A stretch of 64,000 nt of DNA from IMG/VR virus record IMGVR_UViG_2861084961_000001; one strand, 5' to 3'. Position numbers and translations under genes: made by a program. The notes under the pieces were generated by a model, which had not been told where the DNA came from, did not search any database, and worked only from the letters and a program-made list of their open reading frames with translations. Each line of letters opens with the position of its first letter. The stretch's first letter is position 1. Positions 35,221-51,519 of the stretch are shown here, one piece after another. This stretch comes from a virus (Duplodnaviria; Heunggongvirae; Uroviricota; Caudoviricetes).

Positions 35221-35405
35221 TTTGTTCTGGCGAGTGTAATTAACCTGCTTCTGTATATAAATAACTACATATTAATTATTAATATACGGAAGCAGGCTGT
35301 TTTGTATCAGAGACTCCCAGACCTGAACACCACTACAGAATCCACTAGAACCCCTTCTCAGACGCTTTAAAATCGATTTTATGAACCACTTTAAGGAAAA
35401 CTAAC

Positions 35406-35636
35406 ATGTCATACCCGACCAATGTTGTTGCGCTCGTAGAGAGCGATTTTCTGGCTAAGGCTCGTGAAATGATGAAAGATCGCGAGCAGGCTTTCAACTT
35501 GTACGAATGGGCAATTAAGTGCTTGCATCTTGGGGAGCATCGCGAACTTGTTGAACAGCTTTTAGGTGAGTTGATCAACGAGGTGTTTGCCTTGAATGTT
35601 CAACTACATGGTCGAGAAAATAACCAATCGAAATGA
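35406..35636 (+). CDS. hypothetical protein (76 aa)
   Basis: ORF track. Confidence 0.35.
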   Translation: MSYPTNVVALVESDFLAKAREMMKDREQAFNLYEWAIKCLHLGEHRELVEQLLGELINEVFALNVQLHGRENNQSK

Positions 35637-36217
35637 TAGATAAGTACAAACTATTCATAAGATGGATTGTAAGTGCTAAGATCTGATAGTTTCCAGTCGT
35701 AGACTGGAGACTCGACCTGATGGGTGGGGGTAAGCGTCACTGGCGTCAGGTTTAAAAAAGCTCACTACCAGCGTAGAACCGGTGCCGTTTAGGTGTCGGG
35801 GAAGGGGGAACCAAAGTGAGCGGAGACAAGGGTCACTTTATGATTGTCGAGTCTGGGATGTTTCGAGAGGTTGAATCCAGTACTCCCCTTCATAAAGTGT
35901 GGGAAGATCTCGGTTCTGGGGTGCTGTCATCCATAACTTCCCAAGTCTAAGCTGGCAGTAGACTTAGACCATAGCTTTTCAGGTTATGAAACGACCAGGT
36001 TGGTGAGGAATTTTATACTCACCTCCCTGGGAGAGTATTACCTGAAAAGACAACCTCTCACTTCGTTCGAGGTGAACTTCACTCACTTCGTTCGTTCAGT
36101 TCAGGTTTATAAAAACCTGTACTGGGAAGTAATTTGTTTATTTTAATAATTATTACACGCACGCGTGTGCGCACGCGCGAGGAAAAAATCGGCGCGGCGC
36201 TTGATTCAGGAGTTTAT

Positions 36218-36808
36218 ATGACGTCGAAGACACCAGCCCGGTCGCAAGCAAAAACTCGCAAAAAAGACAAAAACAAAAATTCTCCCCGCACCAATCCCAC
36301 AACGCCTGTCGTAGAGTTCAATCCCCAGCTTAAAACCGTGAAAATCTTCAGTGATGGCTCTTGCCTTAAAAATCCGGGTGGCCCGGGCGGTTACGGTATA
36401 GTTCTCCAGTATCGTGGTGAGGAACGCGAGTTCTCAGATGGTTTTCATAGCACCACCAATAACCGCATGGAGATGATGGGGGCACTTATCGGGCTGGAGC
36501 GTTTGAAATATCCATGCAACGTTATTTTGCACTCTGATAGCCAGTATCTGAAAAACGGCATGACACAGTGGATGAAATGGTGGAAACGCAATGGATGGAT
36601 GACTTCTGACAAAAAACCGGTAAAGAATGTTGATCTGTGGAAGCGTCTGGATGAGGCCGCAAGTCGACATAATGTTCGCTGGAAGTGGGTTAAAGGTCAC
36701 GCCGGGCATCGTGAAAATGAAATATGTGATCGACTCGCGAAGATCGCAGCTTTTTCCGCAGCAGATATGCCTCACAAGAAAGATATTGGTTTTGTTTATA
36801 ACAAGTAG
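36218..36808 (+). CDS. rnhA: ribonuclease HI with about 45-aa basic N-terminal extension
   Basis: [91 protein letters not shown]; ATG 36218 inside track ORF 36134..36808. Confidence 0.85.
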
Positions 36809-36827
36809 TAAGTAAGTGTTTACCTAT
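36808..36827. promoter_or_regulatory. motif A palindrome (GTAAGTAA-GTGT-TTACCTAT)
   Basis: Intergenic, after rnhA. Confidence 0.4.
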
Positions 36828-36956
36828 CATTTTAAATCATGTATCTTATCGGCGTCAGGATGACAATGTGTCGGTAAGACACAGTTCCAGGATGGAACGA
36901 GAAAGGCGGCTGGCAATCGCCAGCCGCAACTCTTTCTGACACTGGATGGAGTCCAC

Positions 36957-37464
36957 ATGGCACGTCAAACCTATTTCACTTCTGCAACTAAACGTCCTCG
37001 TTCTTTACGTCAAATTTTGGCCGAATTATTTAGCGGTCGTGTTATGTCACGTCTTGATGAACTAGAGACTACCGTTCGGTTGCTGAATGAACGTTTAGAT
37101 AATCAAGCGTCAGTTGTTGCGAACGTGGGGGCGATTGTTGCCTCTGGTTCTTCACGCGAAGCGAAAAGTACACGGCCTTTAGTGAAGGAGAAAAACAACA
37201 AGGACAGTTCGAATGGAAAATTTTCAAAGAAAGAGGCTGAAACCAATGGCCTACGTTCTCATTATAGTTTCACTGGCGACGGTAGCCGTTCCAGCCGGCC
37301 AGAGCCTTTTGATGCCGGATTCATCCATCACCACACCTTCGTCGACGACAATTACCACCACTCCAGTGGAGCGTCCTGTCACTCTGGATGGGATGGCGGT
37401 GGATGCGATACCTCAAGTTCATCCAGTTACTCAGGATCATGCTGTGACTAAGGCGGTTGTATGA
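36957..37464 (+). CDS. hypothetical protein(s) with C-terminal transmembrane segment; frames 36957.. and 37213.. probably one gene
   Basis: ORF track; hydrophobic AYVLIIVSLATVAVPAG in second frame. Confidence 0.3.
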
Positions 37465-48227: not shown

Positions 48228-49328
48228 TCACACTGCGCGGAATGCGATTTCGCCAGGTATTACTTCACCTTGCCAATACATTTGGGCAGCAACGCGATCT
48301 GCGAGGTCACGATAAATAGCCGTAAATTCGCTATCTGGACGACTAATAACGGTTGGTGTTCCGTTATCCAGATCCTCACGAAGAGAGATATGAAGTGGCA
48401 TTTGGCCTAACAACTGCGTGTTGTATTTCTCGGCCAGTTTCTGTGCGCCACCGGTGCCAAAAATTGGCTCGTGATGACCGCAGTTACTGCAAATATGCAC
48501 ACTCATGTTTTCGACGATACCTAGTACCGGCACTTCGACTTTTTCGAACATCACAATGCCTTTCTTCGCATCGATCAGCGCGATGTCTTGCGGCGTAGTT
48601 ACCACAACCGCACCAGTTACAGGAATGTTCTGCGCCAGCGTCAATTGAATATCACCAGTGCCCGGCGGCATATCGAGAACGAGATAGTCCAGATCAGGCC
48701 ACAGTGTTTCCTGCAACATCTGCATCAGCGCCTTGCTGGCCATCGGTCCACGCCACACCATTGCATTGTCGTCGGTGACCAGATAACCAATAGAGTTGGT
48801 TGCCAGGCCATGAGACATGATAGGTGCCATGTGAGTACCGTCCGGTGAGGTTGGACGTTGGTTTTCCGCACCCAGCATGGTTGGAATTGATGGACCGTAG
48901 ATATCGGCATCCAAAATACCAACTTTCGCACCTTCAGCAGCCAACGCCAGTGCCAAGTTTACTGCTGTGGACGATTTGCCTACACCGCCCTTGCCTGAGC
49001 TGACGGCGATGATGTTCTTAACGCCATTAATGCCTGGTTGGTTTTTGACGCGCTTAAGCGTGGCAATGTTGTACGACAGCTTCCAGTCGATAGCCTTTGC
49101 GCCAGTGATACGGAGCAGATCACCACTACATTGCTCTTTCAGGTCTTCAAAAGGCTTATTCCACACGAAAGGCATGATTAGTTCGACATGCAGTGTGTCA
49201 TCCATCAACGCAACATGGTGTAACGCTTTAAGCGTAGTCAGGTTGTGCTTCAGGGTTGGGTGCTGAAAATTAGCCAGCGTACCGGCTACCATTGCTCTCA
49301 GGGCATCCGGCGATTTGGACTCGCTCAT
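48228..49328 (-). CDS. mrp: Mrp/ApbC Fe-S cluster carrier ATPase, intact, host-type
   Basis: 366 aa; deviant Walker A SSGKGGVGKSSTAVNLA, CxxC motif; near-identical to recalled E. coli Mrp. Confidence 0.9.
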   Translation of the reverse strand: MSESKSPDALRAMVAGTLANFQHPTLKHNLTTLKALHHVALMDDTLHVELIMPFVWNKPFEDLKEQCSGDLLRITGAKAIDWKLSYNIATLKRVKNQPGINGVKNIIAVSSGKGGVGKSSTAVNLALALAAEGAKVGILDADIYGPSIPTMLGAENQRPTSPDGTHMAPIMSHGLATNSIGYLVTDDNAMVWRGPMASKALMQMLQETLWPDLDYLVLDMPPGTGDIQLTLAQNIPVTGAVVVTTPQDIALIDAKKGIVMFEKVEVPVLGIVENMSVHICSNCGHHEPIFGTGGAQKLAEKYNTQLLGQMPLHISLREDLDNGTPTVISRPDSEFTAIYRDLADRVAAQMYWQGEVIPGEIAFRAV

Positions 49329-49485: not shown

Positions 49486-51519
49486 ATGACCCAAGTCGCG
49501 AAGAAAATTCTGGTGACGTGCGCGCTGCCGTACGCTAACGGCTCAATCCACCTCGGCCATATGCTGGAGCACATCCAGGCTGATGTCTGGGTTCGTTACC
49601 AGCGAATGCGCGGCCACGAGGTTAATTTCATCTGTGCCGACGATGCCCACGGTACGCCGATCATGCTGAAAGCACAGCAGCTTGGTATCACACCGGAACA
49701 GATGATTGGCGAAATGAGCCAGGAACACCAGACTGATTTCGCAGGCTTTAACATCAGCTATGACAACTATCACTCGACGCACAGCGAAGAGAACCGCCAG
49801 CTGTCTGAGCTTATCTATACTCGCCTGAAAGAGAACGGTTTTATTAAAAACCGCACTATCTCTCAGTTGTACGACCCGGAAAAAGGCATGTTCCTGCCGG
49901 ATCGTTTTGTGAAAGGCACCTGTCCGAAATGTAAAGCGCCAGATCAATACGGCGATAACTGTGAAGTTTGCGGCGCGACCTACAGCCCGACTGAACTGAT
50001 TGAGCCGAAATCGGTAGTTTCTGGCGCTACGCCGGTAATGCGTGATTCTGAACACTTCTTCTTTGATCTGCCCTCTTTCAGCGAAATGTTGCAGGCATGG
50101 ACCCGCAGCGGTGCGTTGCAGGAGCAGGTGGCAAACAAAATGCAGGAGTGGTTTGAATCTGGTCTGCAACAGTGGGATATCTCCCGCGACGCACCTTACT
50201 TCGGTTTTGAAATTCCGAACGCGCCGGGTAAATATTTCTACGTCTGGCTGGACGCACCGATTGGCTACATGGGTTCCTTCAAGAATCTGTGCGACAAGCG
50301 CGGCGACACTACCAGCTTCGATGAATACTGGAAGAAAGACTCCACCGCCGAGCTGTACCACTTCATCGGTAAAGATATCGTTTACTTCCACAGCCTGTTC
50401 TGGCCTGCCATGCTGGAAGGCAGCAACTTCCGCAAGCCGACCAACCTGTTTGTTCACGGCTATGTGACGGTGAACGGCGCGAAGATGTCCAAGTCTCGCG
50501 GCACCTTTATTAAAGCCAGCACCTGGTTGAATCATTTTGACGCTGACAGCCTGCGTTACTACTACACCGCCAAACTGTCTTCGCGCATTGATGATATCGA
50601 TCTCAACCTGGAAGATTTCGTTCAGCGCGTGAATGCCGATATCGTGAACAAAGTGGTTAACCTGGCCTCCCGTAATGCGGGCTTTATCAACAAACGTTTT
50701 GACGGCGTGCTGGCAAGCGAACTGGCTGACCCGCAACTGTACAAAACCTTTACTGATGCCGCTGAAGTGATTGGCGAAGCATGGGAAAGCCGCGAATTTG
50801 GTAAAGCTATCCGTGAAATCATGGCATTGGCTGACCTGGCTAACCGCTATGTCGATGAACAGGCTCCGTGGGTGGTGGCGAAGCAGGAAGGACGCGATGC
50901 CGATCTGCAGGCGATTTGCTCTATGGGCATTAACCTGTTCCGCGTGCTGATGACTTACCTGAAACCGGTACTGCCGAAACTGACAGAACGTGCGGAAGCA
51001 TTCCTCAATACGGAACTGACCTGGGATGGCATCCAGCAACCGCTGCTGGGCCATAAAGTGAATCCGTTCAAAGCACTGTATAACCGTATCGACATGAAAC
51101 AGGTGGAAGCATTGGTGGAAGCGTCTAAAGAAGAAGTGAAAGCTACTGCCGCGCCAGTTACTGGCCCGCTGGCAGACGACCCGATTCAGGAAACCATCAC
51201 CTTTGACGACTTTGCCAAAGTTGACCTGCGCGTGGCGCTGATCGAAAACGCAGAGTTTGTTGAAGGTTCTGACAAACTGCTGCGCCTGACGCTGGATCTC
51301 GGCGGTGAAAAACGTAATGTCTTCTCAGGCATCCGTTCCGCTTATCCAGACCCACAGGCACTGATTGGCCGTCACACCATTATGGTGGCTAACCTGGCTC
51401 CGCGTAAAATGCGTTTCGGTATCTCCGAAGGCATGGTGATGGCTGCTGGCCCCGGCGGGAAAGACATCTTCCTGTTAAGCCCGGATGCTGGTGCTAAACC
51501 TGGCCACCAGGTTAAGTAA
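49486..51519 (+). CDS. metG: methionyl-tRNA synthetase, intact, host-type
   Basis: [29 protein letters not shown] (HIGH-type), KMSKS, C-terminal tRNA-binding domain; start at ATG 49486 inside track ORF 49357..51519. Confidence 0.95.

Follow-up and report, generated by a model that had tools for sequence, protein, structure and literature searches.

Escherichia coli RNase HI (rnhA; PDB 2RN2/1RNH) is the closest described relative of the enzyme reported here, with an active site formed by D10, E48, D70, H124 and D134 and a basic protrusion on the catalytic fold. In the RNases H1 of eukaryotes and in bacterial enzymes of the HBD type, such as that of Bacillus halodurans, which combine PF01693 with PF00075, an N-terminal hybrid-binding domain (HBD) and a basic or proline-rich linker precede the catalytic domain. 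The HBD of RNases H1 raises affinity and processivity. Type-1 RNases H are also encoded by phages, among them T5-like phages of Salmonella and Escherichia, Vibrio phage ICP1 and jumbo phages (PHROG 531), where the gene sits in a DNA-metabolism module. Here we describe an rnhA-like gene whose product shares the active site, protrusion and fold of the E. coli enzyme and begins with a short, basic tail that is predicted to be largely disordered. In the literature that we searched on SSU5/pHCM2 phage-plasmids and on RNase HI extensions, including the LF82/Cyrano paper, this tail is not described.

The gene lies in a stretch of viral DNA of 64,000 nucleotides, which we analysed as a whole and refer to as the window. 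The 1.6-kb region around the gene (35400–37000) is 100% identical to the E. coli plasmid pG749_2, 97.5–98% identical to the phages PhiR41_1 and Cyrano; with the Salmonella phage SSU5, the identity is about 82%. The same region matches 684 plasmid records, mostly non-mobilisable and of about 105–120 kb, including pHCM2, and the hosts of these plasmids are Klebsiella, Escherichia, Enterobacter, Salmonella, Citrobacter and Cronobacter. On these identities, the window is a phage-plasmid of the SSU5/pHCM2 type. Aligned by BLAST to the plasmid NZ_CP014490.1, the window shows indels, and the two are not collinear. ARAGORN found no tRNA or tmRNA gene in the window.

Like the RNase H genes of other phages, the gene is part of a DNA-metabolism block. 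The co-oriented block contains nrdAB, thymidylate synthase (thyA), DHFR, an AAA ATPase and a DnaQ-like 3'-5' exonuclease, and continues with a phage N6-adenine (Dam-type) methylase, a 76-aa ORF, an intergenic region of 581 nt, rnhA, a 164-aa ORF and a TerB-like gene. The order from the methylase to the TerB-like gene is common to the relatives. PADLOC gave no defence-system match for the RNase HI or for four of the five neighbour proteins tested; the upstream methylase alone matches, to orphan and type II methyltransferase models. Farther along the window, we notice a host-like apbC (Fe-S cluster carrier; 48228–49328, minus strand) and metG (methionyl-tRNA synthetase; about 49486–51519, plus strand), named through 97% identity to the annotated pG749_2, in a stretch with a G+C content of about 0.50 as against about 0.45.

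The ORF starts with ATG and encodes 196 aa followed by a stop codon, and its coordinates and translation match exactly those of the initial annotation, which had called the product an RNase HI. This identity is confirmed. The product matches Pfam RNase_H (PF00075) over residues 40–178 with an E-value of 1e-44 and 152.6 bits (cutoff 25.8), the NCBIfam equivalog NF001236 (RNase HI) over residues 38–180 with 220.5 bits against a cutoff of 160, and PHROG 531 with 2e-80. In a sequence search of the PDB, the best match is a reconstructed ancestral RNase H (4ly7), followed by E. coli RNase HI and its mutants, and query residue 38 falls onto residue 2 of the E. coli chain. The identity with the E. coli enzyme is about 60% over residues 38–193. 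All five active-site residues are present (D46, E85, D107, H161 and D171, corresponding to E. coli D10, E48, D70, H124 and D134), and their columns are invariant or nearly so in the alignments. The basic protrusion, or handle, is also present and aligns to E. coli residues ~80–100 without a gap. PF00075 is the sole Pfam family in the protein; the FEN-type 5'-3' exonuclease domain (PIN-like/H3TH) of the T4-type 'RNase H' is absent. The coordinates of the locus are collected in Table 1.

Table 1. Positions of the features of the rnhA locus and of the region upstream of it, numbered from the first nucleotide of the window.
Feature	Position	Strand	Basis or remark
Intergenic region, 581 nt	35637–36217		between the 76-aa ORF and rnhA
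Candidate extended -10 promoter, TGcTAAGAT	35674–35682	+	pattern TG-n-TAnnAT
Core of the intergenic region, ~450 nt	about 35686–36135		conservation among relatives
First fully covarying hairpin	35690–35712		covariation
13-nt direct repeat, two copies	36057–36069; 36082–36094		exact, 25 nt spacing
(CA/CG)n palindrome	36155–36179		alternating purine-pyrimidine
Upstream in-frame stretch of some PGAP records	36167–36217	+	GTG start, 214 aa; judged untranslated
Shine-Dalgarno AGGAG	36208–36212	+	5 nt before the ATG, read from the sequence
rnhA-like CDS, RNase HI	36218–36808	+	profiles, PDB sequence search, AlphaFold2, Foldseek
Codons 1–28, predicted disordered polycationic tail	36218–36301	+	AlphaFold2 pLDDT, charge, 21 variants, no Pfam family
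Codons 29–37, linker TPVVEFNPQ into β-strand 1	36302–36328	+	near-invariant in SSU5-type relatives
Codons 38–196, RNase HI catalytic domain including the basic protrusion	36329–36805	+	alignment, Foldseek
Catalytic codon D46	36353–36355	+	
Catalytic codon E85	36470–36472	+	
Catalytic codon D107	36536–36538	+	
Catalytic codon H161	36698–36700	+	
Catalytic codon D171	36728–36730	+	

An AlphaFold2 model built on an alignment of 21 sequences has a mean pLDDT of 84, with values above 90 in the core. Among the best 50 PDB matches of this model in Foldseek, all are RNases HI (E about 1e-24, TMt 0.84–0.94), namely the E. coli enzyme and its mutants, the Shewanella enzyme and the reconstructed ancestral enzyme. 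The top matches are E. coli RNase HI, with TMt 0.86–0.94 (about 0.9) and rmsd values of 1.4–2.5 Å, typically about 1.7 Å. The gene product is a type-1 RNase H with an intact catalytic core. We infer that it is enzymatically active and would cleave the RNA strand of RNA-DNA hybrids in dependence on Mg2+ or Mn2+.

There are several differences from E. coli RNase HI. The protein of the window has 37 extra N-terminal residues, predicted to be disordered for the most part, with a charge of about +7. In the alignment to E. coli residues 2–143, a one-residue insertion in the GGPGG loop is the sole indel ahead of a four-residue insertion near the C-terminus. The net charge of the whole protein is about +17 versus about +2 (+1.9) for the E. 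coli enzyme, and the core itself is unusually basic relative to that enzyme. Finally, the gene is carried by a phage-plasmid and not by the chromosome.

The initial annotation had described a basic extension of 45 residues, with homology to the E. coli enzyme from about residue 46 on. The extension is real, and each SSU5-type relative that we examined has it in frame and with a basic composition; its length needs correction. Residue 46 is already the first catalytic Asp (E. coli D10), and the homology begins at residue 38, which corresponds to E. coli L2. Since L2-K3 of the E. coli N-terminus (M1-L2-K3-Q4-V5) pair with L38-K39 of the protein, the extension comprises 37 residues. These include 6 Lys, 3 Arg, 5 Pro, 1 Asp and 1 Glu, and have a net charge of about +7 and a pI of 11.2. 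In the AlphaFold2 model, the pLDDT is below 50 for residues 1–5 and 7–28, and no secondary structure occurs ahead of residue 40, while residues 31–40 have a mean pLDDT of about 87. Residues 1–28 of the tail are therefore predicted to be intrinsically disordered by this model.

No folded domain was recognized in the tail. A Pfam search with the isolated tail at E<=10 returned no family, and the hybrid-binding domain PF01693 was matched neither by the full protein nor by the isolated tail at E<=10. Because Pfam is blank on the tail even at this permissive level, there is no hybrid-binding domain in it. The architecture resembles in its logic that of the HBD-type RNases H1, in which an N-terminal affinity module and a basic or Pro-rich linker stand in front of the catalytic domain; unlike those enzymes, the protein lacks a folded HBD, and its tail is about half the length of HBD plus linker. 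Clamp-binding-type motifs (QL[SD]LF and Qxx[LIM]xx[FWY]) are found nowhere in the protein, and none of the other plausible genes of the window has a similar basic N-terminal tag.

Two pieces of the tail are conserved, the N-terminal MT(T/S)KTPAR and the lead-in TPVVEFNP(Q). The middle is variable, rich in Lys, Arg, Ser, Thr, Asn, Gln and Pro, and diverges in both sequence and length across lineages. Despite this sequence drift, every long-tail lineage has a net tail charge of +7 to +9. Two more distant, short-tail relatives (P0098 and P0101, 58–63% identity) have Lys-rich tails of 23–26 aa with a charge of +4 to +5 and retain F-D-P-N-LKT, so that F-(N/D)-P is kept even with a short tail. Across the relatives, tail length ranges from 23 to 41 aa, and no lineage is shortened to an E. 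coli-like N-terminus.

Public annotations give this gene at least three different starts, with products of 196/197, 214–216 or 254 aa. In the SSU5 RefSeq record (NC_018843.1, 79147–79911; L089 1563–2327), the product of 254 aa begins at a GTG within the conserved intergenic element. PGAP gives 214–216 aa for a subset of the E. coli and E. albertii records (pEA26_1, L001 6765–7409) and 196–202 aa elsewhere, and the PLSDB gene table of NZ_CP014490.1, whose 1.6-kb region is identical to that of the window, leaves the gene unlisted. We compared the start region among the lineages of E. coli, E. albertii, Enterobacter, Salmonella pHCM2 and Salmonella 2014K-0203, two Klebsiella types and one divergent E. 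coli type. Every SSU5-type lineage in this comparison keeps the same ATG with GGAG 6–8 nt upstream. For the loci of pHCM2, Enterobacter and E. coli pLAO4 (L008, L010 and L011), it is the sole in-frame ATG, GTG or TTG from the upstream stop codon to the catalytic Asp codon. Both longer versions were rejected. The GTG at 36167 used by PGAP for 214–216 aa lies inside a purine/pyrimidine palindrome, has no Shine-Dalgarno sequence and is missing in L008, L010 and L011; the start of the 254-aa version is not conserved, has no Shine-Dalgarno sequence and falls in the non-coding element.

A shorter product was also considered. The initial annotation had stated that a true start at an internal methionine would refute the extension by leaving it untranslated; this objection fails, as the first internal methionine is M84, past the catalytic D46. 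The window does contain an in-frame GTG at 36338 (V41), 15 nt ahead of the catalytic Asp codon, and in view of the discordant public starts one might place the true start there and regard the upstream codons as a 5' UTR. However, this GTG has no Shine-Dalgarno sequence, and initiation from it would drop L38–T40 (E. coli L2–Q4) before β-strand 1. It is missing in the pHCM2, Enterobacter, Klebsiella and SSU5 lineages, where the ATG is the sole in-frame start; in SSU5, GTA takes its place. In pHCM2, Enterobacter and SSU5, no further in-frame ATG, GTG or TTG precedes the Asp codon. With the ATG and GGAG universal and the tail keeping its frame with ω below 1, we consider an internal start extremely improbable.

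The reading frame of the tail is maintained throughout. In all 57 IMG/VR viral contigs that carry the gene, the frame stays open from the ATG onward, and the tail occurs in 21 variants; the frame is likewise kept in all 51 distinct CDSs from viral contigs and plasmid loci, whose tails of 37–41 aa differ by whole-codon indels. By the Nei-Gojobori method, with core values taken where dS is unsaturated, dN/dS is 0.12–0.49 in the tail versus 0.02–0.07 in the core. Within the E. coli lineage, non-synonymous polymorphism affects 6/37 tail codons versus 6/159 core codons. The non-synonymous evolution of the tail is 5–20 times faster than that of the core. Judged by these ratios, the tail is under relaxed but real purifying selection, and the comparative evidence indicates that it is translated from the ATG at 36218. 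This fixes the start codon of a gene whose public records disagree.

Beyond the SSU5-like group, the tail is not seen. Of 1.84 billion representative proteins searched, P0087 of a Salmonella phage-plasmid is alone in aligning over residues 1–193. RNase HI homologues occur in 905 phage records, and the alignments of those outside the SSU5 group start at residue 31 or later, mostly at 37–43. The tail is therefore specific to the SSU5-like group. N-terminal additions to RNase HI as such are not rare; they include HBDs with a basic linker, poly-Lys stretches and other N-terminal domains in phage-like proteins. In the metagenomic P0179, a strongly basic stretch (here poly-lysine) directly precedes the catalytic domain, as in the window. 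The phage-like P0254 shares the GGPGG loop and a lead-in of the TPV-x-F-x-P kind ('...TPVNFRPD...'). Unlike the protein of the window, P0179 and P0254 bear extra, unrelated N-terminal regions of 40–110 aa, and the tails have no detectable homology.

The gene itself is not universal in the group. It is missing in three SSU5-like loci, where the site holds betT in C. freundii (L015), unrelated ORFs in K. pneumoniae (L016) and IS4321 in E. coli (L017). L016 keeps just the first eight codons, MTTSTHAR, followed by a stop. The loss or replacement of rnhA in these elements marks it as an accessory gene and its site as a hotspot of gene exchange. In two divergent SSU5-like loci (L002 166–702 and L004 7477–8004), we notice a second, degenerate RNase H-like ORF of 175–178 aa, which lies directly upstream of a short-tailed rnhA and overlaps the start of that gene. 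Its identity to RNase HI is 29%, and it scores just under the Pfam RNase_H cutoff; the positions of D46, E85 and D107 hold a Ser, a non-acidic residue and a Glu, respectively. Judging from its sequence, this ORF is likely a pseudo-enzyme partner.

We infer a replication role for the enzyme. The phage-plasmid's own RNase HI would cut RNA in RNA-DNA hybrids through a D-E-D-D (+His) two-metal site, and presumably clears primers and R-loops when the element replicates as a plasmid and/or lytically. Translation from the ATG at 36218 would provide it with the 37-residue tail, the first ~28 residues of which are predicted to be disordered and strongly cationic. We propose that the tail acts as a non-specific electrostatic arm, which may raise the affinity and dwell time on nucleic acid, and that the basic core may join the arm in raising affinity for hybrids and DNA. 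We assign a probability of roughly 0.55 to this reading, that is, to an electrostatic nucleic-acid-binding arm on an RNase HI of replication and R-loops. The conserved charge, drifting sequence, predicted disorder and lack of a folded domain are compatible with nucleic-acid binding, and basic N-terminal additions have precedents in the HBD with basic linker of P0229, P0219, P0199 and P0256 and in the poly-Lys stretch of P0179. A role of the tail in localisation, which had been suggested alongside nucleic-acid binding, found no support.

Several observations weigh against the electrostatic arm. The non-synonymous rate of 5–20 times that of the core means that much of the tail may be weakly selected. 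The best-conserved pieces, MTTKTPAR and TPVVEFNP, are not its most basic parts, and their conservation fits a docking motif or a structural cap equally well. The tail could instead be a protein-docking element, in which one or both of these pieces recruit the enzyme to a replisome component of the phage-plasmid or the host and the basic spacer is only a flexible linker. Consistent with docking, conservation is much higher at the ends of the tail than in its basic middle, P0098 and P0101 retain F-(N/D)-P-x-LKT in spite of their short tails, and residues ~30–39 are modelled with confidence. On the other hand, the protein has no clamp-binding-like motif, no other real gene of the window has a similar tail, and a passive linker would not need the positive charge that is conserved across lineages. 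We regard docking as unlikely, though plausible enough to be kept in mind. The gene is moreover dispensable, as seen from its loss or replacement in several SSU5-like plasmids; frameshifted copies exist (P0080, P0091 and P0097), and the hosts already carry an rnhA.

The tail could also be a near-neutral add-on, acquired when the start moved upstream once the gene had settled behind a long leader; this low-complexity peptide would then have no selected function other than doing the enzyme no harm. The ω of up to 0.49, the excess of polymorphic tail codons in the E. coli lineage, the length range of 23 to 41 aa and the predicted disorder all point in this direction. Nevertheless, ω is below 1 in every comparison, no lineage has been cut back to an E. 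coli-like N-terminus, and genera with saturated synonymous sites still share the charge, the N-terminal octapeptide and the linker, which makes a near-neutral tail rather improbable. Alternatively, the conservation of the first ~110 nt of the gene could act mostly at the level of RNA or DNA, as a continuation of the leader or as DNA bent by phased A-tracts, with the peptide as a by-product. The gene adjoins a highly conserved structured region, and in the E. coli lineage its Lys codons produce A5–A6 tracts at 36250, 36260, 36269 and 36275 (36250–36279), spaced by about 10 bp. However, these tracts are missing in other lineages and so probably arise simply from the many Lys codons. In nucleotide sequence, few parts of the locus are less conserved than the tail-coding segment, and its conservation lies at the level of protein and charge; we consider conservation as RNA or DNA very unlikely. 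The electrostatic arm remains our preferred reading of the tail.

The intergenic region upstream of rnhA is more remarkable than the tailed gene itself. The initial annotation had placed the gene directly after a structured non-coding region, and the region of 581 nt indeed folds well, with z = -5.5. Its core is 90–94% identical among elements from Escherichia, Salmonella and Klebsiella, despite the saturation of synonymous sites in the flanking rnhA. The plus strand folds with -171 kcal/mol (z = -5.5) and the minus strand with -143.6 kcal/mol (z = -4.7), and many conserved G-U pairs favour the plus strand. RNAalifold predicts 111 pairs, of which 18 show compensatory changes; the region of the distant relative L004 aligned poorly and was left out of this covariation analysis. 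Rfam returned nothing credible, either for the whole window at gathering thresholds or for 35500–37000 at E<=1. The region has the look of a structured RNA not described before, of a long leader or of a cis element.

Several sequence elements lie in and beside this region. The candidate extended -10 promoter at its 5' side has positions T38, T41, A42, A45 and T46 of the alignment invariant in eight divergent relatives, and would start transcription at ~35689, at the first fully covarying hairpin. A two-hexamer promoter scan found no plus-strand sigma-70 match between the intergenic region and rnhA and did not flag this candidate; a terminator scan found no convincing plus-strand terminator over the same interval. 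A hairpin at 36155–36178 was rejected as a terminator, as it scores on the minus strand only and the site has no convergent gene. Close to its 3' end, the core contains an exact direct repeat of 13 nt, CTCACTTCGTTCG, which most relatives share and to which a protein could bind. The core is followed by an AT-rich stretch, then by the palindrome and then by the Shine-Dalgarno sequence of rnhA. The palindrome, ACACGCACGCGTGTGCGCACGCGCG, consists of alternating purines and pyrimidines, varies in length and sequence among relatives like a dinucleotide repeat, and would be prone to form Z-DNA or a hairpin; the alternative GTG of PGAP lies inside it.

We also asked how the intergenic region relates to the enzyme. 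By analogy with ColE1 RNA II, T4 ori(uvsY) and the mitochondrial LSP/CSB, the tailed RNase HI and a ~450-nt, G-tract-containing upstream transcript might form an R-loop-primed replication origin unit; the features that can be cited for it are the putative extended -10 promoter, the AT-rich stretch and the Z-DNA-prone (CA/CG)n palindrome. If this were true, the cationic RNase HI of the phage-plasmid would process a pre-primer for lytic replication. We hold such an origin to be highly improbable. A functional link between the intergenic region and rnhA is unsupported, since the region persists in phage-plasmids that lost rnhA. No GC-skew switch, taken as a sign of an origin, occurs near 36 kb, and the skew is positive from ~27 to 48 kb. 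As the region is kept without rnhA and no skew switch is seen, there is no sign that it depends on the gene.

Our understanding of RNase H is unchanged by this enzyme, a well-known one in a modestly altered form that is confined to one lineage. A natural RNase HI with a short, predicted disordered polycationic arm and the 60%-identical, tail-less E. coli enzyme nevertheless make a clean test pair, and their comparison could probe the effects of the tail on hybrid binding, processivity or salt tolerance. The finding also contributes a detail on replication in the SSU5/pHCM2 phage-plasmids, a poorly studied subject in elements that clinical Enterobacteriaceae commonly carry.
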